A DNA stretch of 64,000 nt from a virus, in IMG/VR virus record IMGVR_UViG_3300028490_000395. One strand, 5' to 3'. The notes under the pieces are model-generated. The model was not told where the DNA came from. It ran no database searches and worked only from the letters and a program-made list of their open reading frames with translations. Positions 3,349 through 52,092 of the stretch are shown here, piece after piece (positions within the stretch are counted from its first letter, which is position 1; each line of letters opens with the position of its first letter). Both the position numbers and the translations under genes were made by a program.

Positions 3349-3967
3349 TTATTCAATCATAACGGACTTTGGTTGTCCGTTTATGTGTGCGTTCTGTATC
3401 ACAAACTCTCAAAACTCAAAAAAGAAGTTTACTTTTAATGAAGAAGTATTCTCTGATATATCAGAGAGTCTCTCTAAGGGGTCTTACAGGCGCATCTCAG
3501 TGTCAGGAGGAGGTGAGCCTCTCTTTGTACACAACAATGAGATTCAGGCATTCTATGACAGGCTATTTAAGTTTGGAAAAGAAAAAAACATACCGATACA
3601 TGTTCATACAAATATCGTTGCTCCAAACGCTTTAGCTAGGAAGTTTGATAAGGTGACTATTTCAATCAACGAAGAGAACTTTCTTAAAAAGTATTTTCTA
3701 TGGGAGGATGTCAAAGATAAAAGATTTGTGCATGTTTCAGATGGGTCAGATGTTACGCTGATCAAAGAGATGATCTTTAATCTAGATAAAGATTCTCAGC
3801 TAACTATAAAGCAAATGGATGGGGTTGACGCTTCATGCTTTGTAGATGTAATAAAAGAGTGCACTCTGGATCAAAGGGTTATGTTCCTCGCTGAAGGTGA
3901 TTATAACCTGTACTATGTACTAAATGAAAGAAAAGAATTTCATAAATTCAAGGATATAAGCTTTTAA
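3332..3967 (+). CDS. small radical-SAM enzyme, activase-like (PflA/NrdG/QueE-like fold)
   Basis: CPFMCAFC (CxxxCxxC) at residues 15-22 and a GGGEPLF motif. About 211 aa. Overlaps the pncA end by 17 nt. Confidence 0.65.
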   Translation: MFASANYSIITDFGCPFMCAFCITNSQNSKKKFTFNEEVFSDISESLSKGSYRRISVSGGGEPLFVHNNEIQAFYDRLFKFGKEKNIPIHVHTNIVAPNALARKFDKVTISINEENFLKKYFLWEDVKDKRFVHVSDGSDVTLIKEMIFNLDKDSQLTIKQMDGVDASCFVDVIKECTLDQRVMFLAEGDYNLYYVLNERKEFHKFKDISF

Positions 3968-4713: not shown

Positions 4714-6531
4714 ATGAGGGTATCTGCTATGTTTAGCTTTAAAAAATCAAATCCAACTCCAAGCTTGAAAGAACTGTTAAATTTTAAAGAAGTTGACAAG
4801 ATTTCATCCGTTAAATTTTCAAGTATGCCTCTTCTATCTGATAATAAACGACATTCTTTTATTATTCTTCAAATAAAAGAACGGGCAAATATAGACGATC
4901 AAATGGATGAGCAGCGTATTTTTTACAGAAAGTTAAAAAAAGAGATTGAAGGTAAAAAACATTTATCTACTTCCGTATCCCTCCAAACATTAAGAAAAGT
5001 AATCTATCCAAGATTTGAGAACTTTGAATCCGATCGTATAGAGATTCCTATCCATGAAGCATTATCAAAAGAGTTTCAAAAATCAATAAGTGATTGTCGA
5101 ACTAATTTTTTCACATATAAATCATTTATAGTTATTAGATTCTCAAAGTTAACAAAAAAAGCAACATATGAGTTTGCCGAGATAATTAAGCTTTTATCAG
5201 ACAGTAATTTACTTCAAGTTGATCAGAATGAAATAAGCAAGTTCTTTGACAATGACTATATTGAGATGGATCCTTTTCACAATATTATTGCAAGTGAAGG
5301 AGAGTCACACTATCAAATTCTTATAGATTCTATGTACAACGTTTTTACGGATTCCAAGGCAGAAAAGTTCAAAGATGATTTGATTGCAGCTTTTGGAAAT
5401 AATTTCATTACATATAACGGCGTTGTTCCAACAGTATCAGAGAACGGGGTGTGTTCTTTTCTCGATATAGATGACTCTTTTTCTATTATTGGGATAGCAG
5501 GAAGTGGAAAGACAACGCAAATGTCAAGTATTGTAAAAAGTTATCTAGATAAAGGCACTAGAACTTACATTATAGACAATTCTGAATCGTATGAACATTT
5601 TTCTAAATTCTTCAATTCAAAAAGATTTGATTTAAATAAAGACTTATCTATAAATATTCTTTCGCTAGTTTCAGAAGACAATGACAACAACGAGATTATA
5701 GATGCTTATATCGATGTTATTAATGCTTTAGTTGGAGGGATGCAACGGGCTGAAAGAAATCAAGTTAAAGAGGTCGTTAAACATGTTGTGTTTTCAAAGA
5801 AGAACAAAGGCACATTAAAAGATGTCGTTAAAGAGATGGGTAAAAACAATAAGCTTTACTCGTTAATGGGGAAGTTAAAGCCTTATATAGAGGAGTCTTC
5901 AGAATATTATAATGTTCTTAATTCACCATGTGAAATAAGCTTTGGAATGGAAGATCTTTTTGTATTAGATTGTTCTGAGTTATATAAAGATACAAAACTG
6001 AGAGAGGCTATCCTCATATCTACAATATTGATAATAAAAGAGATCGAAAAGAAAAAGAGTGGATCATTCTTACTAATTTTGGAAGGCGTGGATGAATATT
6101 TAAGAACCGACACGACTTCATTTATAAAAGATGTAAACAACAACTTTAAAAGTTTACACGGTAAATTAGGGGTTTCATTGGACTATTCTTTTCATAAAGA
6201 AAATTTAGATGCACTTCCATTATCTTCAATTATCATCTATCAAAGAGCCGGGAACTTTTTATCTCAGGGAATTTTAAACAATTCCATTCATCTAAACCTA
6301 GAGGTGAAAGAGTTTTTGCTTGCGCATGAAACAGAAAATTTTAATTCCTACAAAATGATCATGACAAAAGACAACAAAGTATTATTTAAGGGTCGGCCTA
6401 TTTTTGGATATGATCCGGGACTATTAACTGGTTCATATAGAGTAAAAAAAGAGATTGATTTGAAAATCAGATCAGGGTTATCAGAGGAAGAATCTTTAAA
6501 GAAAGTTATTAAAGAAAATTCTTTAGGTTAG
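4714..6531 (+). CDS. P-loop NTPase (Walker A IIGIAGSGKTT mid-protein), possibly HerA/VirB4-like
   Basis: Walker A at about residue 265 and a candidate Walker B LLILEGVDE. The family is not resolved. An alternative ATG at 4732 follows GAGGG. Confidence 0.55.
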   Translation: MRVSAMFSFKKSNPTPSLKELLNFKEVDKISSVKFSSMPLLSDNKRHSFIILQIKERANIDDQMDEQRIFYRKLKKEIEGKKHLSTSVSLQTLRKVIYPRFENFESDRIEIPIHEALSKEFQKSISDCRTNFFTYKSFIVIRFSKLTKKATYEFAEIIKLLSDSNLLQVDQNEISKFFDNDYIEMDPFHNIIASEGESHYQILIDSMYNVFTDSKAEKFKDDLIAAFGNNFITYNGVVPTVSENGVCSFLDIDDSFSIIGIAGSGKTTQMSSIVKSYLDKGTRTYIIDNSESYEHFSKFFNSKRFDLNKDLSINILSLVSEDNDNNEIIDAYIDVINALVGGMQRAERNQVKEVVKHVVFSKKNKGTLKDVVKEMGKNNKLYSLMGKLKPYIEESSEYYNVLNSPCEISFGMEDLFVLDCSELYKDTKLREAILISTILIIKEIEKKKSGSFLLILEGVDEYLRTDTTSFIKDVNNNFKSLHGKLGVSLDYSFHKENLDALPLSSIIIYQRAGNFLSQGILNNSIHLNLEVKEFLLAHETENFNSYKMIMTKDNKVLFKGRPIFGYDPGLLTGSYRVKKEIDLKIRSGLSEEESLKKVIKENSLG

Positions 6532-12498: not shown

Positions 12499-13461
12499 AT
12501 GAATACATTTTCAACAGATGAAAAAGAAACACTTTTTAGCCAATTCATAGTAAAGGCTAGTGAAGTAATGACACCCTCACAAAATACAGTAACAGATTCT
12601 CTTGATATAATTGATCGAGATCTTTACGACTATACTAAAGCTGCAGGACTTGAGAGTCTTTGCCTAGGCATCTCTGGGGGACTAGATTCAGCGGTAGTAG
12701 CGGCTATTGCCTCTAAAGTAACAAAAAGACTAGGGATTAAACTTATAGGGGTTTCTATCCCTCTTAGTTCGTCAGACAAACACAGGGAGCAAGCTGCATG
12801 GGTTGGAGAAACTTATTGTGACGCATTCTCAGAGATTAATGCTTGGGAAGAGATAATCCCTGAAGCAGAAACAACTCCACACGAGATGGTTGACTCTGTA
12901 ATCAATTCAACAGATAGAGTTCTTAAAATGGCGGGATTTGAACCGAATGACTTTGATCGAGCTATTCAACAAGCGAACATTAAAAGTAGACTTAGAATGA
13001 TTACTCTTTATGCTATTGCTAAAAATGCAAAAGGAATGGTTCTAGGGACAGGAAACTGGAGCGAAGACCATGCAATTTTCTTTTATACAATTGGTGGAGA
13101 TGGTCAAGTCGATTACTCTCCGATAAAAGGAATAGGTAAAGGCTTTGAGATGCCTGTGTTTGCAAAAGAGCTAGGGATTAGAGATGATATCATTGATCAA
13201 AAACCGAGTGACGGTCTAAAAGCTTCTGAGGCGGATACAGATGAAGCTCAGATAGGTGGGACCTATGAAGAAGTCGATGCAGTAATCAATGCTTACCTAG
13301 GAAACTTTGGAAAAGAGCTTACTTACTACTTCAGCATGATTGAAGATCTTGAAAAAGTTCAAAAGATCATTGGAAGACATAAGGCCAACAAATTCAAAGA
13401 GAATGGTGAAGTCTCAATAGAGAGGGGAGAGAACGGGCTACCAGAAGTCTTTATGGAATAA
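12499..13461 (+). CDS. nadE: NH3-dependent NAD+ synthetase
   Basis: PP-loop LGISGGLDSAVVAAIA. Length and layout are consistent with NadE. Confidence 0.8.
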   Translation: MNTFSTDEKETLFSQFIVKASEVMTPSQNTVTDSLDIIDRDLYDYTKAAGLESLCLGISGGLDSAVVAAIASKVTKRLGIKLIGVSIPLSSSDKHREQAAWVGETYCDAFSEINAWEEIIPEAETTPHEMVDSVINSTDRVLKMAGFEPNDFDRAIQQANIKSRLRMITLYAIAKNAKGMVLGTGNWSEDHAIFFYTIGGDGQVDYSPIKGIGKGFEMPVFAKELGIRDDIIDQKPSDGLKASEADTDEAQIGGTYEEVDAVINAYLGNFGKELTYYFSMIEDLEKVQKIIGRHKANKFKENGEVSIERGENGLPEVFME

Positions 13462-24725: not shown

Positions 24726-26771
24726 ATGGCAACGACAATCACAAACAATAAAGAGTACACAGTATCTGTAATGAACTTAAACAAATGGGCTAATGAGTAT
24801 TACACTCGTGATAATCCTTCAGTTTCAGATTCAGTTTACGATGAGCTGTACTTTTCTGTAAAAGCATTTGAAGATGCTAATCCTACTTTGTTATCAAAAA
24901 ATTCACCGACTCAAAGAGTTGGAGATAAATTACTAACAGGGTTTACAAAAGACTCTCATCTACAAAAGATGTATTCTCTAGATGACGTCTTTTTTGCTGA
25001 CGGTTCAGATCATGAAGAATTTCGTGAATGGGCTGATAAAATTAAAGAAGCTTACCCAAATGTAACCTTTTACGCAGAGCCTAAATATGACGGCTTGTCT
25101 CTCAACTTTCTTTATAAAGATGGAGAGCTTGTTAAAGCTATTACACGTGGAGATGGTGAAACTGGAGAAGATGTTACTGAAAATGCTCGTCATATTCATG
25201 GTGTCCCTCTTTCTATCCCATACACAGGTCTTGTTGAGATTCGTGGTGAAGTTACAATCTTTAAAAAAGATTTCCGTTCGGTAAACGATTATCGTCTTTC
25301 TATTAACAAAGATGAGTTTACAAATGAACGTGGTGCTGCTGCTGGATCTTTACGCTCATTTAACTCAGAAGCTGTTAAAGCTGCTCAGTTAAAATTTTCT
25401 CCTTATGCACTTGGCGAAAATGAGTTAGATCTAAACATGCAGTCTGAAGAGTATGACTGGATTATCTCACAAGGTTTTACCTCTTGGGGTACTCGAGAAC
25501 ACTCTGTTACACACGATACAGTCTCTGGAGTAATTCAGGACTACGATCGTATCATGACAACAAGAGATGAACATCCAATGTTACTAGATGGTGTTGTAAT
25601 CAAGATCGATGAAAAAGAAATCCAGCATGAGCTAGGTTTCACAAATAAGTTTCCTCGCTGGGCAATTGCTTATAAATTTCCGGCAGAAGAAGCTTTAACA
25701 ACGATTTTGAATATCATCTATCAAGTTGGTAAAACTGGTGCAATTACTCCTGTAGCTGTACTAGCTCCAACTGAGTTTGACGGTGTTACTGTTGAACGTG
25801 CAACACTTCACAACTTTCTTGAAATTGAACGCAAAGACATTCGCATTGGCGATATTGCTACAATCATTAGAAGTGGAGATGTTATCCCTAAAATTTTAGG
25901 TGTTAATCCTCTTGTTCGTGTAGGTACTGAAATTCCAGTAACTGAACCAACTAACTGCCCCTCTTGTAATGCTCCTACGGAACATAGAATTGGTGTAGAT
26001 GGCAACGAGTCAACTGTTACGTATTGCTCTAATCCACACTGTTCAGCTCGTGTTAAACAAAACATTGGCTATGCAATTGGTAAAAAAGCTTTAGATATGG
26101 TTGGTCTTGGTGATTCAGCTGCTGAAGAACTTGTTGAGAAAGAAATGGTCTTAGAAATTCCTGATTTATTCATGCTTTCAAAAGATGATCTTCTTAAACT
26201 TGACGGGTTTAAAGAACGTAAAGCTCAAAAAGCTTACGACGCTATTCAATCTGCTATTGGTACTGATCTTTATCGAGTTATCAATGCTTTAGATATTGAG
26301 CTTATTGGTGAACGTGCCTCTAAAAAACTTGCTATCAACAAATTCTTCGTAAGCCTAATTTTAGGTGAAGTTGAAGTTGAAGATAATCAATCATATGTTA
26401 TCTCTAAGCTAGAAGCGATAGAAGATATTGGTTCAGCTATGGCTAACAATATTTACGCATTCGTTTCTTCTGAAAGAGGTTTTATTAATCGTATGATTAG
26501 TTCAATCAATCCTAAGATGCCTGACTTTGACAAAGCTAAAGCAACTGGTGCTTTCACAGGTAAAACTGTTGTAATAACTGGAACCTTATCTGAGTCTCGA
26601 GGTGTCTTTGGTAAAATGGTTGAAGAAAATGGTGGTAAAGAAGGAAAGTCTGTTTCTAAAAAGACTGATTTTTTACTTGCTGGTGAAAAAGCTGGTTCAA
26701 AGCTTACTAAAGCAGAATCACTTGGAGTTACTGTTCTTAGTGAAGAAGAGTTTCTCGCTATGATCTCTTAA
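24726..26771 (+). CDS. ligA: NAD+-dependent DNA ligase
   Basis: KxDG adenylation motif EPKYDGLSL, Zn-finger CPSCNAPTE...CSNPHC, HhH region, and C-terminal BRCT GKTVVITGTL. Confidence 0.9.
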   Translation: MATTITNNKEYTVSVMNLNKWANEYYTRDNPSVSDSVYDELYFSVKAFEDANPTLLSKNSPTQRVGDKLLTGFTKDSHLQKMYSLDDVFFADGSDHEEFREWADKIKEAYPNVTFYAEPKYDGLSLNFLYKDGELVKAITRGDGETGEDVTENARHIHGVPLSIPYTGLVEIRGEVTIFKKDFRSVNDYRLSINKDEFTNERGAAAGSLRSFNSEAVKAAQLKFSPYALGENELDLNMQSEEYDWIISQGFTSWGTREHSVTHDTVSGVIQDYDRIMTTRDEHPMLLDGVVIKIDEKEIQHELGFTNKFPRWAIAYKFPAEEALTTILNIIYQVGKTGAITPVAVLAPTEFDGVTVERATLHNFLEIERKDIRIGDIATIIRSGDVIPKILGVNPLVRVGTEIPVTEPTNCPSCNAPTEHRIGVDGNESTVTYCSNPHCSARVKQNIGYAIGKKALDMVGLGDSAAEELVEKEMVLEIPDLFMLSKDDLLKLDGFKERKAQKAYDAIQSAIGTDLYRVINALDIELIGERASKKLAINKFFVSLILGEVEVEDNQSYVISKLEAIEDIGSAMANNIYAFVSSERGFINRMISSINPKMPDFDKAKATGAFTGKTVVITGTLSESRGVFGKMVEENGGKEGKSVSKKTDFLLAGEKAGSKLTKAESLGVTVLSEEEFLAMIS

Positions 26772-27495: not shown

Positions 27496-29739
27496 TTGCC
27501 CTTGTCTTCTACAGAGAATCAATACAGCGCAAAAAACATTAAGATACTTGAAGGTATTCATGCTGTTCGAAAACGTCCAGGAATGTATATTGGTGATACA
27601 ACTAGTTCAGGTCTGCACCACATCTTATACGAAATAGTTGACAATTCTATGGATGAAGTGTTAGCAGGATTTGGATCAGTAATTATGATCAAAAAGTCTA
27701 TTGAAAATATCATTTCTATTCAAGATGCGGGAAGAGGTATTCCAACAGAGATCCACCCACAGACAGGAGTATCGACCTTAGAGACTGTTCTCACTGTTCT
27801 CCATGCTGGAGGTAAATTCGACAAAGACTCTTACGCAGTTAGTGGTGGTCTTCACGGAGTGGGTAGTGTTGCTACAAATGCGCTATCGGAATGGATGACA
27901 GCGGATGTTTGTACAAATGGGTTCCATTATCACATTAAGTTTATTAGAGGGGTAGCAGAAGCGCCTATGCAAAAACTAAAGCCTTGTTCAAAGACAGGGA
28001 CAATGATTTCTTTCAAGCCAGATGAAAAAATATTTAAAGACGGAATTAAATTCTCAGATGAGATTTTAAGAAATAGATTTATTGATCTTGCTTACTTAAA
28101 TACAGGTTTAAAAATTATTTACAAATATGAAGTATTAAACGAAGATGGAGGCATCGAAGAAATTGAAGAAGTTTATCAGTCTGAAACTGGGCTAGAAGAT
28201 TTTATAGAGCATGAGCTTAACGGGAAGCCTGCTTTAATAAAGACAAAAGTATTTAGTAAAAAACAAGAAGATATCCCAGACAATGAGAAATCAAGAAGTT
28301 TTGAGATCGCTATAAATTACTCAGCTAAAAGTTTTGAAAAGAAGATAAAGTGCTATACAAACAATATCTATAATGAGTTTGGTGGAGATCATGAGCAAGG
28401 GTTCACAAGAGCACTGCATGTGGCTATTACTCAAAAGATGAACGAGAGAAAAGACAATAGTGCTAAAGACATTACTATAGATGACACGAGAGAAGGTCTT
28501 TTTGCTATTATCTCATATAAAGAATATGAGCCTCAATTTAAAGGACAAACAAAGGGTACACTAAATAGTCCAGAGGGAAAATCTCTTGTCTATGCCGAGA
28601 TGAAGAACCAACTTTTAATTTGGCTTGAGGAAAACCCAAAAGACTTTGACAAAATAGTAAAAAAGGCAGAATCAGCTAGAAAAGGTCGTGAAGCAGCTAA
28701 AAAAAGCCGTGAGGCGGCAAGAAAAAATGATATAAACTCTATGGTAGGTATTCTTCCAACAAAGTTAGCTGACTGTCAAAGTAAAGATCCAGAAGAGTCC
28801 GAAATCTACTTGGTTGAAGGTGATTCAGCAGGTGGTTCTGGTAAGCAAGCGAGAAATCGTATTACTCAAGCTATTATGCCTCTAAAAGGTAAGATTTTAA
28901 ATGTAATGAAGCACCCAAAAGAAAAAGCTCAAAATCATGAAGAAATAGGTTCAATGATTACAGCTTTTGGATGTGGTTTTGATAAAACTGTTGATCTAAC
29001 AAAAATTAGATATCACAAAATAATTATCATGACAGATGCCGATATAGATGGTGGACACATTGAGACACTTCTTTTCTTAGCATTCTTTAAATATTGGAGA
29101 CCAATTATAGAGGCAGGATATTTGTATATTGCGATACCACCTTTGTACAGAATGTCTAAAGGTTCAGAGTATCACTATTTTAAAGATGATATTGAGCTTG
29201 ACAAGTGGATAGCAAAAAAAGTATCTTCAAAATACAAGCGCTCTGATATTGATAGAATTTTAGACCAGGCTGTTGAAGATTATGCGGATATAAAAGGCGT
29301 TCCAGTGGACGGTCTTTTAGATTATGCCATTAATGAGCATATCGAACAACTTGGATTAACTTCAGTAATTAATATTCTTCCTCAGGTATTAGAGCAAATA
29401 AAAGAAACTGTTCTCGATGAAATAGACGATGTTAGAGAAGAGGCTATGAAAGAGATTCAGGATAAAGTTCTAAAAGGCTGGATGAAGTCTAGATTTAAAG
29501 GACTAGGAGAGATGAATCCATCTCAACTAAAAGAAACAGCTATGAATCCTGAGACGAGAGTAATTAAGCAGGTAACTCTTTCCGATGAAGGCCGCATGAT
29601 AGGTGATATGTTTCTACAACTAAGCGAAGATGAGGTTTCAGATGTCCTTACTCTTTTAGGTGCAGATGATTCAGCCTTTAGACGATGGTTTTTATTAAAC
29701 TTCACAAAAGACATTGGTCTTGATAAATTAGATATTTAA
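27496..29739 (+). CDS. gyrB: type IIA topoisomerase ATPase/TOPRIM subunit (GyrB-like)
   Basis: GHKL ATPase LEGIHAVRKRPGMYIGDT, plus HAGGKFD, EGDSAGG and PLKGKILNV. The start is TTG; a second TTG at 27502 has better SD spacing to AAGGAG. Confidence 0.85.
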   Translation: MPLSSTENQYSAKNIKILEGIHAVRKRPGMYIGDTTSSGLHHILYEIVDNSMDEVLAGFGSVIMIKKSIENIISIQDAGRGIPTEIHPQTGVSTLETVLTVLHAGGKFDKDSYAVSGGLHGVGSVATNALSEWMTADVCTNGFHYHIKFIRGVAEAPMQKLKPCSKTGTMISFKPDEKIFKDGIKFSDEILRNRFIDLAYLNTGLKIIYKYEVLNEDGGIEEIEEVYQSETGLEDFIEHELNGKPALIKTKVFSKKQEDIPDNEKSRSFEIAINYSAKSFEKKIKCYTNNIYNEFGGDHEQGFTRALHVAITQKMNERKDNSAKDITIDDTREGLFAIISYKEYEPQFKGQTKGTLNSPEGKSLVYAEMKNQLLIWLEENPKDFDKIVKKAESARKGREAAKKSREAARKNDINSMVGILPTKLADCQSKDPEESEIYLVEGDSAGGSGKQARNRITQAIMPLKGKILNVMKHPKEKAQNHEEIGSMITAFGCGFDKTVDLTKIRYHKIIIMTDADIDGGHIETLLFLAFFKYWRPIIEAGYLYIAIPPLYRMSKGSEYHYFKDDIELDKWIAKKVSSKYKRSDIDRILDQAVEDYADIKGVPVDGLLDYAINEHIEQLGLTSVINILPQVLEQIKETVLDEIDDVREEAMKEIQDKVLKGWMKSRFKGLGEMNPSQLKETAMNPETRVIKQVTLSDEGRMIGDMFLQLSEDEVSDVLTLLGADDSAFRRWFLLNFTKDIGLDKLDI

Positions 29740-29748
29740 GGATAAGAA

Positions 29749-32283
29749 ATGAGTAAAAAGCCAAAAATAGACTTTGAGAAATACAAAGAGATATTCCAAC
29801 AAATAATTCACGACGTAGGCGCAGAAGGGGGAACTATAAATTTAGCTGAAGCAGCGATTAATAGTATGATCCTTTATTCTGCATCTGTAGTAGTCGGGAG
29901 AGCGTTGCCTGACCTTAGAGATGGCCTTAAACCAGCTCATAGAAGGCTTCTTTATGCAATGAAGTATTTAGGGATATCTCATTCTGGTGCGTTTAAGAAG
30001 TCAGCAAGGATTACAGGTACAACGATTGGTTTGTATCACCCTCACGGAGACAAGTCGGCGTATGACACAATGGTAGGTATGTCTCAAGAGTGGAAGTTAA
30101 ACTGTCCTCTTGTAGATGGACAAGGTAATTTTGGATCTATAGATGGAGACAATCCTGCTGATCAACGTTATACAGAGTCGAGAATGACAAAATTTGGGTC
30201 TCTTCTTTTTAGAGATTTAGATAAGAATGTTGTTGATTTTAGACCAAATTATGACGGAGAAGAAACTGAGCCTTCAGTACTACCGTCACCTTATCCAAAT
30301 ATCATTATCAATGGGGTTCTCCCAGGTAGTATTGCCGTTGGTATGGCTTCAATTATTTTGCCGCATAATCCGATAGAGGTTATGGATGTTGTAGAACTAA
30401 TGCTTAAGAACAAAAGATCTAACAAGAAAACCTCAGCTGAAGATATTCTAGCGCTAATGCCAGGGCCAGACTTTCCTACCGGTGGCTTCGTGTATGGAAC
30501 TGATAAATCTATGTTGAACATTATAAAGACAGGTAAGGGTAAGGTTCGAATGAGAGCGAAACACCATATTGAAAAGCAGTCTAGAGGTAGAAGCTCAATA
30601 ATCGTTACAGAGATTCCTTGGATGCGTAAAAAAAGTGATTTGATTCAAGATATCGTAACGCTAAAGAAAAATGCTTCAAAAGATGACAGAATGGCAGGGG
30701 CAATCACTAATATTCTAGATAATTCTGACCATGAAATAAGAGTCGTTATAGATATAAAGGCTGGATATGATCCAGAAATGATTTGGAGTTACATCCTTCA
30801 TAATACAAATTTTGATTGTTCAATAACTAGTTCTGCAGTTGTTATCGATCAAGAAATGAACCTAGATGAAGACATGGCTCCGACACCAAAAGAGTATGGG
30901 TTACAAGAGATCTTAGATAAATATTTAGATCACAGGATAACAGTAGTTTTTAGAAAATATTCTGATATTTTGAGTAAGACTTTAGCAAGAAAGCATATTG
31001 TTCAAGGTCTACTAAAAGCGATTGATATCATTGACTCTATAATTAAAATTATAAGATCGGCGAAGTCAGAAGATAATGCGTTTAAAGATATTAGAGCATT
31101 AGGGTTCTCTAAGCTTCAAACAAAAGCGATTCTAAATATTAGACTAGCAAAACTTCTAAATTTAGAGAAGTTGTCTTTGGAAAAAGAGCATACTGAACTA
31201 GACGTTGTTTCTGATAATGCTAATGAGATAGTATCTGATAAGAAAAAACAAATTAGAGAGCTATTAAAAGAGTTTAAAGAGATCAAAAAAACAATTGGTC
31301 ATGAAAGACGTTCTGTAATTGACAACAGTATGTCAGAGTTTGACGTAATTGAGGCAGCAATACCTGAAGAAGACATGGTTGTGTATATTACAGATAAGAA
31401 TTATGTGAAGAGAGTTGTCTCTAGTGATCTAGGAAAGAAAAAAGGGGAATTGATTCTACAAGATGGGGACTCTATAAAAAAGATCTTCAAAGTTAAGTCA
31501 ACTCAGCACATTCTTTTTGTATCTGAAAAAGGTCAAGTTTTTGGGAAAAAGATAGTTGAACTACCAGATTCTTCAACAGGTAACTATATTGAAAATATTG
31601 TCGAGCTTAGTAGTGGTGATAGAATAATTGATTTCTTAATAATTGACAACTTCAATAAAGAAGAAGTATTGGTTCTATTGAGTAGTGACGGAATGATTAA
31701 GAAGAGTTCTTTAGATCAATATAAAGGTGCGTTACGTACTCCGGGTATCACAGGTATCGGATTAAAAGAAGATGCTGTAGTCTTGAGTTCTGGTATCATA
31801 AAAGACTGTTCAGAGAACCAACCGGATGTTGTTATAGTTACAAAGGATGCTAAAGCTATTAGATTTAATTTAGAAAGTGTTAGCTGTATAGGTAGAGCAT
31901 CGAAAGGGGTTACAGGAATCAAAGCTAAAAAGGGAGATATCGTTGTTGGGATGATCATTCCTAAAAATGAGAAATACCTTCTAGCAACAATCACTAAGTC
32001 AGGGATGACAAAGGTCTCTCCAGTATCTTCTTTAAAAGAACAAAACAGAGCAGGCGTAGGCGTCATATGCATGGGGCTTACTAAAAGATCTGGAGAAATT
32101 GTGTCTGTATTAGGTTGGGCAAAAGAAGATTCACACGATCTTGTTGCAAAGATGGAGTCTGGAGAAACGATAGTTCTTGAGTCTAACTCAATTGAAGGCT
32201 CGGCAAAAAATACACGTGGTGCACAGCTATTCGATATAGCAGAAGACAACTCAATAATATCTGTTGAGTTATTTGACAAATAA
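29749..32283 (+). CDS. gyrA: type IIA topoisomerase DNA-cleavage subunit (GyrA/ParC-like)
   Basis: VVGRALPDLRDGLKPAHRRLLYAM, YHPHGD, and the active-site Tyr in DQRYTE. I found no QRRGGKG GyrA-box. Confidence 0.85.
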   Translation: MSKKPKIDFEKYKEIFQQIIHDVGAEGGTINLAEAAINSMILYSASVVVGRALPDLRDGLKPAHRRLLYAMKYLGISHSGAFKKSARITGTTIGLYHPHGDKSAYDTMVGMSQEWKLNCPLVDGQGNFGSIDGDNPADQRYTESRMTKFGSLLFRDLDKNVVDFRPNYDGEETEPSVLPSPYPNIIINGVLPGSIAVGMASIILPHNPIEVMDVVELMLKNKRSNKKTSAEDILALMPGPDFPTGGFVYGTDKSMLNIIKTGKGKVRMRAKHHIEKQSRGRSSIIVTEIPWMRKKSDLIQDIVTLKKNASKDDRMAGAITNILDNSDHEIRVVIDIKAGYDPEMIWSYILHNTNFDCSITSSAVVIDQEMNLDEDMAPTPKEYGLQEILDKYLDHRITVVFRKYSDILSKTLARKHIVQGLLKAIDIIDSIIKIIRSAKSEDNAFKDIRALGFSKLQTKAILNIRLAKLLNLEKLSLEKEHTELDVVSDNANEIVSDKKKQIRELLKEFKEIKKTIGHERRSVIDNSMSEFDVIEAAIPEEDMVVYITDKNYVKRVVSSDLGKKKGELILQDGDSIKKIFKVKSTQHILFVSEKGQVFGKKIVELPDSSTGNYIENIVELSSGDRIIDFLIIDNFNKEEVLVLLSSDGMIKKSSLDQYKGALRTPGITGIGLKEDAVVLSSGIIKDCSENQPDVVIVTKDAKAIRFNLESVSCIGRASKGVTGIKAKKGDIVVGMIIPKNEKYLLATITKSGMTKVSPVSSLKEQNRAGVGVICMGLTKRSGEIVSVLGWAKEDSHDLVAKMESGETIVLESNSIEGSAKNTRGAQLFDIAEDNSIISVELFDK

Positions 32284-44481: not shown

Positions 44482-44505
44482 AAACTCTCTGTAGTTTTTA
44501 TGGTC

Positions 44506-44540
44506 AGGCCGAGGAGACTTGGTTTGGCCTTTTTTTATTT
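44506..44540 (+). terminator. hairpin (AGGCC...GGCCT) + TTTTTTTATTT
   Basis: Lies directly after the 30-aa peptide gene and upstream of the tRNA cluster. Confidence 0.5.
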
Positions 44541-44727
44541 AAGGTCCCTCCAAACTCTTCCTTTAACAATATTGGTATATGATTAACCGGTACCCTCTCT
44601 GAGGAAATCCATAGGACATATATAAAGTCGTAAGTTTCACGAAAGTGATTAATGTGTTTCAGGGCACGCAATTTATTTTGCGGGAGTCTGGAGTAATTAT
44701 TCCCAAGCGCTACCAATTACAAAAAAT

Positions 44728-44804
44728 GCGGGTATAGCTCAGTTGGCTAGAGCGTCAGCCTTCCAAGCTGAATGTCGAGGGTTCGAGTCCCTTTGCCCGC
44801 TCCA
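44728..44804 (+). tRNA. tRNA-Gly (anticodon UCC)
   Basis: Cloverleaf folds. Anticodon arm tcagc-CTTCCAA-gctga. Acceptor gcgggta/tgcccgc, discriminator U, and CCA encoded. Confidence 0.85.
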
Positions 44805-44810
44805 AGAAAT

Positions 44811-44885
44811 GCGGAAGTAGCTCAGTGGTAGAGCATAACCTTGCCAAGGTTGAGGTCGCGAGTTCGAGTCTCGTTTTCCGCTCCA
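44811..44885 (+). tRNA. tRNA-Gly (anticodon GCC)
   Basis: Anticodon arm taacc-TTGCCAA-ggttg. CCA encoded. Confidence 0.85.
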
Positions 44886-44902
44886 TGTAAAAAAAAGAAA
44901 AT

Positions 44903-44975
44903 GCGGGTATAGCTCAGTTGGTTAGAGCACTGGACATTTGTCCGCCGGTCAAGGGTTCGAGTCCTTTTGCCCGCT
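44903..44975 (+). tRNA. tRNA-like paralog with aberrant anticodon arm (pseudo-tRNA?)
   Basis: Acceptor, D arm and T arm are near-identical to tRNA-Gly(UCC) at 44728. The anticodon region ctggacatttgtccgcc folds only as a 5-bp stem with a 4-nt loop (AUUU). No CCA. Confidence 0.5.
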
Positions 44976-45000
44976 CAAATATTAGATAAAGGAGATTACA

Positions 45001-45315
45001 GTGAAAAATCTTGATCAGAAGTTCTTAGTTAACACAGAAGACACAGGGAGATTCATTGTGATCTCAAAGCGCACAGGCAGGAAATATTTTGTCGAAGCAA
45101 TAGGCGACCCTCATATTCAATGGGGATCAGTAGATGCCGCAAGTGGTAAGCTAAACACGAAGAAAGGATGGAAGAGATTTAGAGGATCAATTGATAAAGA
45201 GGATAGCCTCATTACAAAAGATTCTTTTGATAAAATCCATTCTTTAACTCCAGGGGAAAGCCCTCTTGTTTATATTGATAAACTTGACGCTAAGTATCCA
45301 ACCTTAGCTAGATAA
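45001..45315 (+). CDS. hypothetical protein embedded in tRNA cluster
   Basis: AAGGAG lies 6 nt upstream of the GTG start. 104 aa. Confidence 0.5.
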   Translation: MKNLDQKFLVNTEDTGRFIVISKRTGRKYFVEAIGDPHIQWGSVDAASGKLNTKKGWKRFRGSIDKEDSLITKDSFDKIHSLTPGESPLVYIDKLDAKYPTLAR

Positions 45316-45362
45316 ATCTAGGCTTCGGCCTAGGTGGTTTAAATCCCACTAAAAAAGCACAT

Positions 45363-45439
45363 GTCTGCGTAGCTCAGTTGGTAAGAGCGATCGGCTCATA
45401 TCCGATAGGTCACAGGTTCAATCCCTGTCGTAGATACCA
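45363..45439 (+). tRNA. tRNA-Met or tRNA-Ile2 (anticodon CAU)
   Basis: Anticodon arm atcgg-CTCATAT-ccgat. Acceptor has two G.U pairs. CCA encoded. Confidence 0.8.
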
Positions 45440-45448
45440 AGTAAAAAT

Positions 45449-45526
45449 GCGGGTGTAACTCAGTTGGTTTAGAGTGTCATCCTTCCAAGTTGAAAGTCGC
45501 GAGTTCGAGTCTCGTCACCCGCTCCA
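45449..45526 (+). tRNA. second tRNA-Gly(UCC)-like paralog with U.U mismatch in anticodon stem
   Basis: Anticodon arm tcatc-CTTCCAA-gttga. Acceptor gcgggtg/cacccgc. CCA encoded. Confidence 0.65.
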
Positions 45527-45542
45527 GAATGCAATGTCACAT

Positions 45543-45620
45543 AGGTCTATAGCTCCAACTGGCTAGAGCAGGGGATTCCAAATCCTCAGGTTAAGAGTTC
45601 GAATCTCTTTAGGCCTGCCA
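45543..45620 (+). tRNA. tRNA-Trp (anticodon CCA)
   Basis: Anticodon arm gggga-TTCCAAA-tcctc. Acceptor aggtcta/taggcct. CCA encoded. Confidence 0.8.
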
Positions 45621-48613: not shown

Positions 48614-48768
48614 AAAAACCTCATAATTTTAATATAGAGTCATTTTAACATATAAAAAGAAAACTTCATATTTCTTTTAGGATTGCTTTGATATACTTTC
48701 TTTATTAATCAAGAAGATACCTATAACAATAAACGCATTTTATGCTTATTTACACGAAGGAGTTACTT

Positions 48769-51700
48769 ATGATTTTCATATCAGACCTAAGTATTTCAGA
48801 AAGCGCACTAACAGTTACACAAGCTGTTGAACTTGCTGAAAGCTTAAATATTAAACAAATGGTAATTGCAGACTCAAACTTGAGTGGAGCTTTGCCATTT
48901 TATTACGCTGCAAAAAAAGCTGGTATTAAACCAATTTTTGGCGTTCGTCATTGGTTCGATAGTGTTGAATATTTATTCATTGCTAAAGATTCAATTAGTT
49001 ATAAAAAGTTGCTCTTTTGGGAGTCAAAAGGTTATACAGAAGATGCATTCTTAACAGAAGGCATTCTAACTATAGCAATTAACACTAAAACAGCTAATCC
49101 TGTTTTCAAGTCAAAACTATCTATTCTTAAGAAAGAGATTTCTGAGATTGATAAAATGATCAATGAAGACTTGTCAACGCTAGACGTTATTGACACGAAT
49201 ATAATGAATGCCAAAGAAGAAGGCGACTTCTTTAAAATTGGACTTATTAAAGCTATAAAAGAGACCTCATCTTTAAAAAAAGAAGTTGCCTCTAATAACA
49301 TCTCAGCTACTTATGAATATAAAGAATCAACTAAACTTGATTCAATTATGAGTAGCTGTAAAAATGATTACAAATTTGGTAATCCTAATCCTCCAACTTT
49401 TAAATTTAGAGTTGAAGTTGGTGAAGAGTATGGTTTAACTAATGCAACTGACAAATCTTTATTTGAAACGTTGTGTAAGCTAGGTTTAGAAAAAAGACTT
49501 GAAAAAGTTGATAAAAAACTACACCACCTGTATTATGCTCGCCTAAACAAAGAGATGAATGTTATTGATAACATGGGCTTCCCAGGTTATTTTCTTATTG
49601 TTTGGGATTTTGTAAACTATGCAATTAAAATGGAAATTCCAGTCGGTCCAGGTCGTGGTTCTGCTGCAGGTTCTATTGTTGCATGGGTTTTAGGTATTAC
49701 AAACTTAGATCCAATCAAGTATCATTTACTTTTTGAGAGATTTCTAAATCCTGAACGTGTCAGTCTTCCTGATATCGATCAAGATTTTTGTCAAACTCGT
49801 CGTCAAGAAGTTATTGACTATGTTATTGAACGATATGGTGTTGAAAATGTTGCTCAAGTAATTACATTTGGTAAATTTGGAGCAAAAGGTTCAACCGTAG
49901 ATGTCACTAGAGTATTAGAGTTACCACAATACATTGGTGAAAACATATCTAAACGAATTCCTGATCTTACAAACTTCAAGAAAGCTTACGCCGGTGCCAA
50001 AGACTCGTGGGATGAATATCTTTCAAAAGATTTTTATTCTTCTCTTGTTTGGGATCATAGTCGGACAATTGAAGGTTATACTCGAGGAACTGGTATTCAT
50101 GCAGCTGGATTAGTTATTAAAGATGACGAAATCTATAATCATGCGCCAGTTTATCGATCTGAAAAAGATGGAGAAGGAGCTTATTTGATCGGATACGATG
50201 GAAAATATCTTGAAGATGTTGACCTAGTTAAATTCGATTTCCTTGGACTAAAAACGTTATCTGTTATCGATGCTGCAGCTAGAGCTGTTTTTAAGAATCA
50301 TGCTATCAAACTTGATATTATGAACTTAGATCCAATAGATGCTAAAGTGTATGAGTACATTGAGTCTGGAAATACAATTGGAATGTTCCAAATTGAATCT
50401 CCAGGCATGCAAGACTTATCTAAGAAATTAAAGCCTGAAGACTTTGAAGACTTAATTGCACAGCTTGCGTTATATAGACCAGGACCAATGCAGGCAGGAA
50501 TGCTTGACAGTTTTGTTGCTAGAAAAAATGGTAAAGAAAAAATTGACTATTTCTTTAAAGAGATGGAAGAAAAGCTTAAGCCAATTCTAGCTCCAACTTA
50601 TGGAATGATTGTCTATCAAGAACAAGTTATGCAAATCGTTCAAGAAATTGGAGGATTTTCACTTGGTCGTGCCGATTTAGTTCGTAGAGCTATGGGTAAG
50701 AAAGATCCAGATGAAATGAAAAGGTTAGCCTTGGAATTTGCAGATGGAGCTTCTGCTATCGGCTTTAAGAAAGACAATGCAATCGACCTATTCGGGCTTA
50801 TTGAAAAATTTGCTGGATATGGATTTAATAAATCACACTCTGCTGCTTATGCTGCGGTAACTTATATTACAGCTTGGCTGAAATTATATTACCCTAATGA
50901 GTTTATGGCAGCCTTAATTAATTCTGAGGCTAAGGATAGAGAAAAGCAAACGAAATATATTCGTGAAGCTAAAGACATGAAGTTACAAATGGATACTCCA
51001 AATGTATTTATTGCGACACCTACATTTGAGGCGACTAAATCTGGAATAACTTTCAGTGCAAGTTCAATTAAAGGTCTTGGTGAAACAGCTGTAACTTATT
51101 TTCTTTCTCAATTCAAAAAGATAGATAAAGACGATGATTTCAAATCAGTCATAAAACTATTAAATAAGATTCAGATCTCTCCTAAACTTAGATTTGAAAA
51201 TTATGAAAAGTTTATAAACAAAGCAACTCGTACGTCAAATTCACTTTCTAAAAAGATTGAGGAAAAAGACGAGCAAATTCACAAACTAAATGTGAAAGCT
51301 AGAGAGAAAGGTTTAACTGATAAAGAAGGAGAACGTCTACAACGTTATTATGTTGTATTAGCTGAGTTAAATTCAGATAAAGAAAAAACAGATCTAGACC
51401 TCGTCAAAGACAATCTTGACAAATTGGTTCGTCTTCAATCTGATTTCGAGTCATGGAAAGAGTCTAAAGACAGTTTTATAAAGATCCAGAATGCGATGTT
51501 CGAGTCTTTCGCAAAAATTGGAGGCTTAAGTAGTTTTGGGATTCCTAGAAAAGTATTAGTTGAAAATACATCTAAGATTTTATCTGGCTCATGCCCTGAA
51601 GACATAGATTTAACAGGAGATGAGTATTCTAAAGCTGAGATAATTTCACTTGAACAAGATCTTTGCGGAGATTCATTTTCAAGTCCTTTTACAGATCAGC

Positions 51701-52092
51701 AATTAGCAGCCATTAAGCAAGTAAACATTGCTGAAATGAATGTTGGTATGCTTCTTTCTAAAGTTGAGAAAACTAAGAAAGATGGTGGTAAATATTTAAT
51801 CGTGTCTTTTTTAGATGCTGATAATAATATAACTTCCGGATCTGACTTTAACAATAAGGCAAATGTCATAAATGAAGGAGAAATAGTTAAATTCAAGATT
51901 TCTAAGAAAGGTCAGTATTCTAACCTAACTTATATTGATCGAATTGATTTAGATGCCTTTATTCGTGCACAGAAGCCTGCTGACGTTGCAGTAACAGTTG
52001 ATCAAGACATTTCGTCTATGGTTATACCAGATGGTGCAGATATCGTTGTAAAAGATTCAAAAGGAAATATTGTTGCGAGAATAGCTCGTTAA
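48769..52092 (+). CDS. dnaE: DNA polymerase III alpha subunit (DnaE-type C-family polymerase) with degenerate PHP domain
   Basis: NMGFPGYFLIVWDF...VGPGRGSAAGS...LLFERFLNPERVSLPDIDQDF...GYGFNKSHSAAYA. The N-terminus is FISDLSISES where HxHxxDYS is expected. ATG at 48769 follows GAAGGAG. Confidence 0.9.
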   Translation: MIFISDLSISESALTVTQAVELAESLNIKQMVIADSNLSGALPFYYAAKKAGIKPIFGVRHWFDSVEYLFIAKDSISYKKLLFWESKGYTEDAFLTEGILTIAINTKTANPVFKSKLSILKKEISEIDKMINEDLSTLDVIDTNIMNAKEEGDFFKIGLIKAIKETSSLKKEVASNNISATYEYKESTKLDSIMSSCKNDYKFGNPNPPTFKFRVEVGEEYGLTNATDKSLFETLCKLGLEKRLEKVDKKLHHLYYARLNKEMNVIDNMGFPGYFLIVWDFVNYAIKMEIPVGPGRGSAAGSIVAWVLGITNLDPIKYHLLFERFLNPERVSLPDIDQDFCQTRRQEVIDYVIERYGVENVAQVITFGKFGAKGSTVDVTRVLELPQYIGENISKRIPDLTNFKKAYAGAKDSWDEYLSKDFYSSLVWDHSRTIEGYTRGTGIHAAGLVIKDDEIYNHAPVYRSEKDGEGAYLIGYDGKYLEDVDLVKFDFLGLKTLSVIDAAARAVFKNHAIKLDIMNLDPIDAKVYEYIESGNTIGMFQIESPGMQDLSKKLKPEDFEDLIAQLALYRPGPMQAGMLDSFVARKNGKEKIDYFFKEMEEKLKPILAPTYGMIVYQEQVMQIVQEIGGFSLGRADLVRRAMGKKDPDEMKRLALEFADGASAIGFKKDNAIDLFGLIEKFAGYGFNKSHSAAYAAVTYITAWLKLYYPNEFMAALINSEAKDREKQTKYIREAKDMKLQMDTPNVFIATPTFEATKSGITFSASSIKGLGETAVTYFLSQFKKIDKDDDFKSVIKLLNKIQISPKLRFENYEKFINKATRTSNSLSKKIEEKDEQIHKLNVKAREKGLTDKEGERLQRYYVVLAELNSDKEKTDLDLVKDNLDKLVRLQSDFESWKESKDSFIKIQNAMFESFAKIGGLSSFGIPRKVLVENTSKILSGSCPEDIDLTGDEYSKAEIISLEQDLCGDSFSSPFTDQQLAAIKQVNIAEMNVGMLLSKVEKTKKDGGKYLIVSFLDADNNITSGSDFNNKANVINEGEIVKFKISKKGQYSNLTYIDRIDLDAFIRAQKPADVAVTVDQDISSMVIPDGADIVVKDSKGNIVARIAR

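Follow-up and report, generated by a model that had tools for sequence, protein, structure and literature searches.

A probable recombinant tRNA pseudogene and a conserved protein gene in the tRNA island of an uncultivated jumbo phage

The tRNA cluster of phage T4 encodes two stable RNAs, species 1 and 2 (rnaC and rnaD), that do not decode and are co-encoded and co-processed with the phage tRNAs, and in bacteria tRNAs can share a transcript with a messenger RNA (mRNA), as in thrU-tyrU-glyT-thrT-tufB. Among phage tRNA arrays, a tRNA pseudogene has been reported in that of Xanthomonas phage XacN1 (PMC5852040), and one gene of Stenotrophomonas phage DLP_6 is annotated as tRNA-Pseudo-TAC. PrrC and PARIS are known to target tRNA-Lys (PMC11464382; PMC10264068), and phage T5 escapes PARIS via a tRNA-Lys that is changed in its anticodon stem-loop (PMC11464382). 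A survey of coding sequences (CDSs) in viral tRNA gene clusters found mostly virus-specific hypothetical proteins and few CDSs that are shared between cluster groups (Morgado and Vicente 2019, PMC6409571). Here we analyze a tRNA island at positions 44728-45620 of a 64,000 nucleotide stretch of viral DNA (IMG/VR record IMGVR_UViG_3300028490_000395; this whole stretch is called the window below). The island contains a tRNA-shaped gene at 44903-44978 (the 44903 gene) and a gene for a 104 amino acid protein. We regard the former, with moderate confidence, as a tRNA pseudogene that arose by recent recombination, does not decode and lies in a phage tRNA island with fast turnover; the latter belongs to an uncharacterized protein family that is a hallmark of such islands.

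Like the XacN1 (PMC5852040) and DLP_6 (tRNA-Pseudo-TAC) pseudogenes, the 44903 gene is a tRNA-shaped member of a dense same-strand array that lies among duplicated isoacceptors, has lost a feature that decoding needs and is not conserved between related arrays. It differs from them in that its body is intact, the defect being confined to a swapped, shortened anticodon arm and the CCA end, and in that its make-up as a mosaic of a glycine tRNA body and an ANN-type arm is documented explicitly. With the phage tRNAs that escape nucleases (T5 tRNA-Lys versus PARIS, PMC11464382; survey of anticodon-loop mutations, PMC10264068) it shares a Lys-UUU-like arm and a non-canonical anticodon stem-loop, but those tRNAs keep a 7 nucleotide loop and decode, whereas the 44903 gene combines a 6 nucleotide loop and A33 with a U73 acceptor end of the Gly type, and lacks CCA. 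Judged by its structure, it lacks the defining trait of counter-defence tRNAs, which are functional replacement tRNAs. The T4 species 1 and 2 RNAs, to which it is likened here by description, exceed it in length and do not have the form of a simple cloverleaf mosaic. The protein gene, like the CDSs of other viral clusters and tufB, lies among tRNA genes and presumably shares their transcript. It differs from the surveyed viral cluster CDSs (PMC6409571) in that its family of about 105 amino acids occurs on dozens of widely differing phage contigs and hardly ever outside tRNA islands.

Divided into its cloverleaf parts, the 44903 gene reads GCGGGUA-UA-GCUC-AGUUGGUUA-GAGC-A-CUGGA-CAUUUG-UCCGC-CGGUC-AAGGG-UUCGAGU-CCUUU-UGCCCGC-U-CAA. 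The 7 bp acceptor stem, the D arm and the T arm are intact, positions 27 and 43 form a C27.C43 mismatch, the discriminator is a U (at 44975), and positions 1-71 of the Rfam tRNA model RF00005 align in full at 48 bits, the lowest score among the six tRNA-type genes of the island. The anticodon loop, CAUUUG, is only 6 nucleotides long; an A at position 33 replaces the universal U33, and the Infernal alignment has one loop position deleted. Alternatively, if C32 pairs with the final G of the loop, the arm becomes a 5 bp stem with an AUUU tetraloop. The latter is the arm in the minimum free energy (MFE) structure given by RNAfold, a cloverleaf of -24.2 kcal/mol, and it agrees with the 5 bp stem and AUUU loop described in an earlier note on this DNA, which had been made from the letters alone. 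That note had also claimed that the gene cannot read a codon, and had named an alternative fold with a 7 nucleotide loop as the observation that would speak against this. Enumeration of the pairing registers gave a single one with such a loop; it has two contiguous pairs and reaches -15.4 kcal/mol, 8.8 above the best fold, and even a fold without any anticodon stem (-17.9 kcal/mol) is better. The 3' end is ...CCCGC-U-CAA, so that this gene, as had also been noted, has no encoded CCA; all five of the other genes encode it. Detection of the gene by tRNA finders, which the earlier note had proposed as a check, succeeded with both ARAGORN and Rfam.

The identity set of glycyl-tRNA synthetase consists of G1-C72, C2-G71, G3-C70 and U73 at the acceptor end and of C35 and C36 in the anticodon. 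The 44903 gene has the whole acceptor-end part of this set (GCGGGUA...UGCCCGC-U, as in the neighbouring tRNA-Gly(UCC) gene), and there is no CC in its CAUUUG loop to supply C35 and C36. The glycine identity set that the earlier note ascribed to it thus holds for the acceptor end and not for the anticodon. It does not have the features of tRNA-Lys(UUU) either (loop CUUUUAA and A73), as its UUU lies in a 6 nucleotide loop with A33 and its discriminator is U. By the established rules, a glycine acceptor without C35 and C36, and a UUU without a 7 nucleotide loop or A73, should not be charged efficiently and should not decode. The RNA would keep the L-shaped tRNA fold and would probably also be cleaved by RNase P and the 3' processing enzymes, yet it would present no three-nucleotide anticodon and no glycine or lysine anticodon determinants. 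Given these losses and that of the encoded CCA, the likeliest reading of the gene is as a pseudogene that does not decode.

The outer parts of the 44903 gene are close copies of the first tRNA-Gly(UCC) gene (44728-44804). Positions 44898-44928 (31 nucleotides) are 97% identical to 44723-44753, which is the start of that gene with 5 nucleotides of its leader, and positions 44948-44979 (32 nucleotides) are 91% identical to 44774-44805. The centre (about 44929-44950, 22 nucleotides) lies outside the 57 nucleotide repeat family that unites the three real glycine tRNA genes. Outside the centre there are four differences from tRNA-Gly(UCC), namely one variable D-loop position, two T-stem positions and the change of CCA to CAA. 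The 44728 gene appears to be the donor or the sister of these outer parts. When the centre was compared with 531 distinct tRNAs from related phage arrays, the best match was a phage tRNA-Lys(UUU), ACCGGACUUUUAAUCCGAUGGUC in the 44903 gene versus ACUGGACAUUU-GUCCGCCGGUC. Lys-UUU accounts for 7 of the 25 top matches versus 32 of the 531 tRNAs overall (Fisher p=3e-4; Mann-Whitney p=7.5e-4), and a 3' fragment of a tRNA-Lys in IMG/VR contains CTGGACTTTTAATCCGCTGGTC, the same stem as that of the 44903 arm. The second tRNA-Gly(UCC) gene (45449-45526) has a T arm identical to that of tRNA-Gly(GCC) (T-stem GCGAG/CUCGU). The acceptor and T arm that the earlier note described as common to three genes of a single paralog family are therefore shared as regards the acceptor and the T-loop, and the 44903 gene does have the acceptor, D and T regions of the neighbouring tRNA-Gly(UCC), but the T-stem of the 45449 gene is of the Gly-GCC type and not that of the 44728 gene, so that the three do not make up a simple family of paralogs.

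No other copy of the 44903 gene was found. Exact and degenerate patterns gave no match in IMG/VR, and the four matches to the degenerate pattern in JGI metagenomes include no tRNA and are due to chance. Its anticodon stem, searched with either loop length in 185,579 species genomes (GTDB), occurs in 64 tRNAs, all 64 of which have 7 nucleotide loops and none the 6 nucleotide version. The nearest retrievable relatives of the island, reached through the embedded protein (69-80% identity), are contigs L003, L058, L059 and L060, whose arrays are larger and mutually syntenic (...Trp-Val-Gly(UCC)-[Gly(GCC)]-Met-His-Leu-PROTEIN-Cys-Ser-Arg); the window array is a shrunken, rearranged version of these. 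The 44903 gene is absent from all four and from the related array L013, which has four tRNA-like sequences that are seen by Rfam and not by ARAGORN (237-308, 675-735, 1754-1816 and 3698-3764). One of them has a loop with A33 (CAUAUAA) and no acceptor stem and another has no D arm, and they look like decaying or non-canonical members of the array. Comparison with related clusters, which had been suggested as a further check, thus finds degenerate tRNA-like sequences there and not this gene. Among about 535 distinct tRNAs of phage islands ARAGORN makes three other odd-loop "tRNA-???" calls, at L030 884-953 and at L031/L032 1042-1116 and 1382-1457; with 2 or 4 nucleotide anticodons (6 or 8 nucleotide loops), these are candidates that are possibly mis-folds. 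CCA is encoded in 352 of 413 tRNAs of the related islands.

The features of the island and its upstream border are as follows:

44502-44539, + strand: terminator-like hairpin and T-run, a 12-pair stem followed by TTTTTTTATT, which closes the preceding + strand transcription unit
44728-44804, + strand: tRNA-Gly(UCC), canonical, CCA encoded (ARAGORN Gly-TCC; Rfam 71.2 bits)
44811-44885, + strand: tRNA-Gly(GCC), canonical, CCA encoded (ARAGORN Gly-GCC; Rfam 67.6 bits)
44903-44978, + strand: the odd tRNA-shaped gene (ARAGORN span 44903-44976, called "tRNA-???" with the 2 nucleotide anticodon "tt"; Rfam 48 bits)
44988-44994, + strand: Shine-Dalgarno sequence AAAGGAG, 6 nucleotides 5' of the GTG start
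45001-45315, + strand: CDS of 104 amino acids, GTG start, isoelectric point 9.5, between the odd gene and the CAU tRNA gene
45318-45333, + strand: perfect hairpin CTAGGC-TTCG-GCCTAG directly 3' of the CDS stop, without a + strand T-run
45363-45439, + strand: tRNA with anticodon CAU, CCA encoded (ARAGORN Met-CAT; Rfam 67 bits)
45449-45526, + strand: second tRNA-Gly(UCC), CCA encoded, with a U30.U40 mismatch in the anticodon stem (ARAGORN Gly-TCC; Rfam 64.3 bits)
45543-45620, + strand: tRNA-Trp(CCA), CCA encoded (ARAGORN Trp-CCA; Rfam 55.7 bits)

RF00005 matches all six tRNA-type genes with 48-71 bits versus a gathering score of 29 (E 1e-7 to 1e-13), which is beyond chance. ARAGORN and Rfam together bear out the inventory of the earlier note, six tRNA-type genes and one CDS of 104 codons, and the GTG start with a strong Shine-Dalgarno sequence and the U.U mismatch in one of the Gly-UCC genes were also as it had described them. 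The terminator-like hairpin upstream and the gene next downstream, which is on the opposite strand, set off the tRNA genes and the CDS as a separate unit, and the island is probably co-transcribed from the + strand with the one protein gene inside; a scan for sigma-70 promoters found none upstream of the cluster. The terminator scan flagged the hairpin just after the CDS on the - strand only, and this hairpin could stabilize the mRNA 3' end or serve as a processing site before the tRNA that follows. The CAU tRNA could be an elongator tRNA-Met, or a tRNA-Ile2 if it is modified with lysidine; the latter identity is possible because the window uses ATA often (24.6 per 1000 codons versus 22.6 for ATG). 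Its acceptor stem is topped by a G1.U72 wobble pair. An Rfam match to Plastid-ycf2 on the minus strand was rejected as chance (24 bits versus a gathering score of 65.7).

The 44903 gene, we infer, arose by recent recombination or gene conversion between neighbouring members of the array and subsequently lost its loop geometry and CCA. Its outer parts would have been copied from, or homogenized with, the adjacent tRNA-Gly(UCC), and its central 22 nucleotides would derive from another, ANN-reading tRNA most like Lys-UUU, in whose arm U33 was then changed to A and A37-A38 were replaced by a single G to give the 6 nucleotide loop. Such an origin would be an instance of the birth-and-death turnover that is typical of phage tRNA arrays. 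As in other degenerate array members, a feature needed for decoding is lost and the gene is absent from related arrays; its Rfam score, the lowest of the six, and its being the sole gene without CCA are signs of relaxed constraint. The intact body is weak evidence for selection, since the flanks have diverged only about 7% from tRNA-Gly(UCC), as is expected after a recent event. Of the roles and histories put forward in the earlier note, a pseudogene or a snapshot of anticodon remodelling is accordingly the best-fitting one, with a tRNA-Gly(UCC) body and what appears to be a foreign ANN-type arm.

Several observations weigh against this interpretation. Phage genomes usually purge useless DNA. 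The gene retains the nucleotides of the tertiary interactions (U8, A14, G15-C48, G18G19 and the T-loop UUCGAGU), its anticodon hairpin is perfectly paired, and both T-stem differences from tRNA-Gly(UCC) keep pairing (G49.U65 to A-U and G51-C63 to G.U), so that they could reflect selection on structure and not recency. It also occupies the place of a tRNA just upstream of the CDS, a slot that is filled in 27 of the 47 loci at which the protein family was studied, and it may have a structural or processing role. Its sequence is read from one assembly of this phage. The source of the arm is less sharply defined than its best match suggests: once the loop is masked, Asp and Phe tRNAs match the stem and variable region as well, and the 64 bacterial tRNAs with this stem comprise 30 Arg-UCU, 25 CAU, 6 Lys-UUU and 3 others. 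A strictly lysine origin was given up in the light of these two comparisons. They leave an arm of the type found in ANN-reading tRNAs, with Lys-UUU as the best single candidate and a lysine origin that is suggested but not proven.

It is also conceivable that the RNA is functional and serves as a tRNA-shaped, non-decoding module, either together with the island protein (as a processing signal or an RNA ligand) or as a Lys-type decoy against host tRNA nucleases, the protein family then being a new phage tRNA factor. We consider this doubtful. The main rival reading, that the gene is kept as processing punctuation, has about the same rather low probability. RNase P and the 3' enzymes would cut around the tRNA-like element and so split the upstream tRNAs from the mRNA, giving it a defined 5' end about 25 nucleotides before the GTG of the 104 amino acid gene; decoding would be irrelevant, and the anticodon loop would be free to change. 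The location is right, with the discriminator at 44975 and the GTG at 45001, and a tRNA ends at most 150 nucleotides (often 20-50) 5' of the family start codon in those 27 of 47 loci. What RNase P and RNase Z take as substrate, the acceptor and T domains, is intact, and substitutions there keep pairing. In every other locus, however, the upstream element is an ordinary decoding tRNA whose identity varies, and thus no dedicated non-decoding element is needed. A prediction that the upstream tRNA is specifically CCA-less, for cleavage by RNase Z, failed: CCA is encoded in 23 of 26 upstream tRNAs versus 329 of 387 others (p=0.78). Nor is there support from conservation among the collections scanned.

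It is considerably less probable that the gene is an anti-defence decoy, a non-decoding mimic of an ANN-type, Lys-UUU-like arm that would bind or divert host nucleases which target tRNA, such as those of the PrrC, RloC or PARIS AriB type. The arm does resemble that of tRNA-Lys(UUU) and retains the UUU, AAA is the commonest codon in the window (63 per 1000), and tRNA-Lys is both a known target of PrrC and PARIS and the means of T5 escape (PMC11464382, PMC10264068). The known phage counter-defence tRNAs, on the other hand, are all replacements that are competent to decode (PMC11464382, PMC10264068), and a literature search found no natural tRNA with a 6 nucleotide loop. Moreover, the arm is not specific to lysine, and the gene is not conserved. 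The roles as decoy, primer or small RNA that the earlier note had listed find no support, and the gene is present in no relative or collection that was scanned.

A sequencing or assembly error in a normal tRNA gene, which the earlier note had named as a possible refutation, is improbable. The region is indeed covered by a single metagenomic contig, with a MEGAHIT-style name (k141_827129). One inserted base, however, could not restore a canonical loop, as U33 and the purine at 37 would still be missing, and the change of CCA to CAA is an independent second difference. A chimeric assembly should also be unlikely, in that the identical segments (31-32 nucleotides) are far shorter than the assembler k-mer. 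Finally, non-canonical decoding by a functional tRNA, such as doublet reading or -1 frameshifting at A/U-rich sites, would fit the intact body and the 2 nucleotide anticodon in a 6 nucleotide loop that ARAGORN models, but it is very improbable given the C32-G pair that closes the loop to a tetraloop in the MFE fold, the A33 in place of the universal U-turn nucleotide, the loss (by established identity rules) of the anticodon determinants for glycyl- and lysyl-tRNA synthetases, the missing encoded CCA and the lack of a natural precedent in a literature search.

The CDS that follows the 44903 gene is a genuine conserved gene of an uncharacterized basic family. Its protein has 148 homologs in a collection of 5.8 billion proteins (E down to 1e-63) and 178 clusters at 50% identity in a set of 1.84 billion representatives, nearly all of them stand-alone proteins of 85-115 amino acids. 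Across 40 aligned sequences, the window protein among them, 23 columns are invariant, and the motifs TGRFIVxSxRTG, WGS, KKG, RGS, SLIT, GxSP and LDxxYP, all present in the window protein, are spread over about 100 amino acids. A nearly identical JGI contig (254,785 bp) encodes a protein, P0001, that is the same as the window protein except that the GTG start is written V. The window protein has no match in Pfam, PHROGs, NCBIfam or PDB sequences and no structural neighbour, and the longer family members show no informative fusion. In one distant member, P0267 (255 amino acids), the C-terminal half is fused behind a region with a sub-threshold match to AAA_33 (P-loop kinase; E=0.002, 18.9 bits versus a cutoff of 27), which hints, though faintly, at a connection with nucleotide or RNA-end chemistry.

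The setting of this family was examined at 47 non-redundant loci, made up of 38 distinct ones from 43 IMG/VR matches, other metagenome contigs and two cultured phages. tRNA genes lie within a few kb at 44 of the 47 (614 tRNAs in 353 kb), and 611 of the 614 are on the strand of the family gene, often on both sides of it and immediately adjacent. The DLP_6 homolog AAY80_194 is flanked by tRNA-Leu and a suppressor tRNA, and gene 131 of Ralstonia phage RsoM2USA (RsoM2USA_131) is inside an unannotated array of 15 tRNAs. The family is thus a hallmark of phage tRNA islands, nearly always inside same-strand arrays, and the CDS of the window is not incidental, a link to a protein family that goes beyond the earlier note. 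With the gene typically 20-150 nucleotides 3' of a tRNA, its mRNA would probably be freed from the precursor by tRNA processing. This association in genomes suggests co-expression with the tRNAs and a probable action of the protein on tRNA or translation, which may belong to the conflict with host defences that target tRNA.

The 44903 gene is a well-documented and not surprising case of how phage arrays evolve, through duplication, exchange of segments including whole anticodon arms, and decay; for annotation, this means leaving such genes out of the count of decoders. More valuable as a lead is the 104 amino acid family, which is widespread, strongly conserved, basic, unannotated and without a recognizable fold, which is almost exclusive to the tRNA arrays of large phages, and of which two cultured phages carry members. 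Phage tRNAs are understood as counter-measures to host immunity that targets tRNA, which makes a protein that accompanies them a candidate, open to testing, for a role in tRNA biology or against host defences, and one that merits experimental follow-up.

The source of the window is an uncultivated jumbo phage. The window lies within ENA metagenome contig ERZ27262695:k141_827129 (233,044 bp; G+C about 33%) and encodes a DnaE-type polymerase, an NAD (nicotinamide adenine dinucleotide)-dependent ligase, topoisomerase II subunits, a head maturation protease, a PD-(D/E)XK nuclease and a helicase. The phage has no close relative in INPHARED or IMG/VR. The 440 amino acid protein encoded next to the island has no close relative in IMG/VR either, and its relatives in phage collections, which occur in jumbo and T5-like phages, are only 22-30% identical. 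An NAD synthetase-like gene (12499-13461), the NAD-dependent DNA ligase (24726-26771), two topoisomerase II/gyrase-like subunits (27496-32283) and a DnaE-type Pol III alpha (48742-52092) make up a bacterial-style replication set in this phage without a close cultured relative.

Some other tRNAs of the phage islands are also unusual. A long variable arm, in tRNAs of 82-98 nucleotides, is present in 42 of 470 (about 9%) tRNAs of isotypes that normally have short ones; these arms are hairpin-like, often with a GAAA-type loop. They are commonest in Lys (9 of 52) and Asn (9 of 28), which thus take a class-II-like form, and they also occur in Glu, Met, Cys, Ile and Arg tRNAs (for example, L026 3402-3489, L027 36-123, L025 947-1031, L037 5850-5936, L031 3218-3306 and L039 1685-1778). 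tRNAs with stop anticodons lie near some islands and are possible suppressor tRNAs of related phages: two with a TCA anticodon, which ARAGORN calls as selenocysteine (SeC) tRNAs, are beside the island of L019 (5995-6070 and 7275-7351, - strand), and DLP_6 has one with a CTA anticodon (L056 4319-4393) that is annotated as a suppressor. In one related phage contig (L004/L005), a TnpB or IS605 OrfB-type gene with a Cas12f-like TNB domain (5366-6330) lies just 3' of an island of 16 tRNAs.

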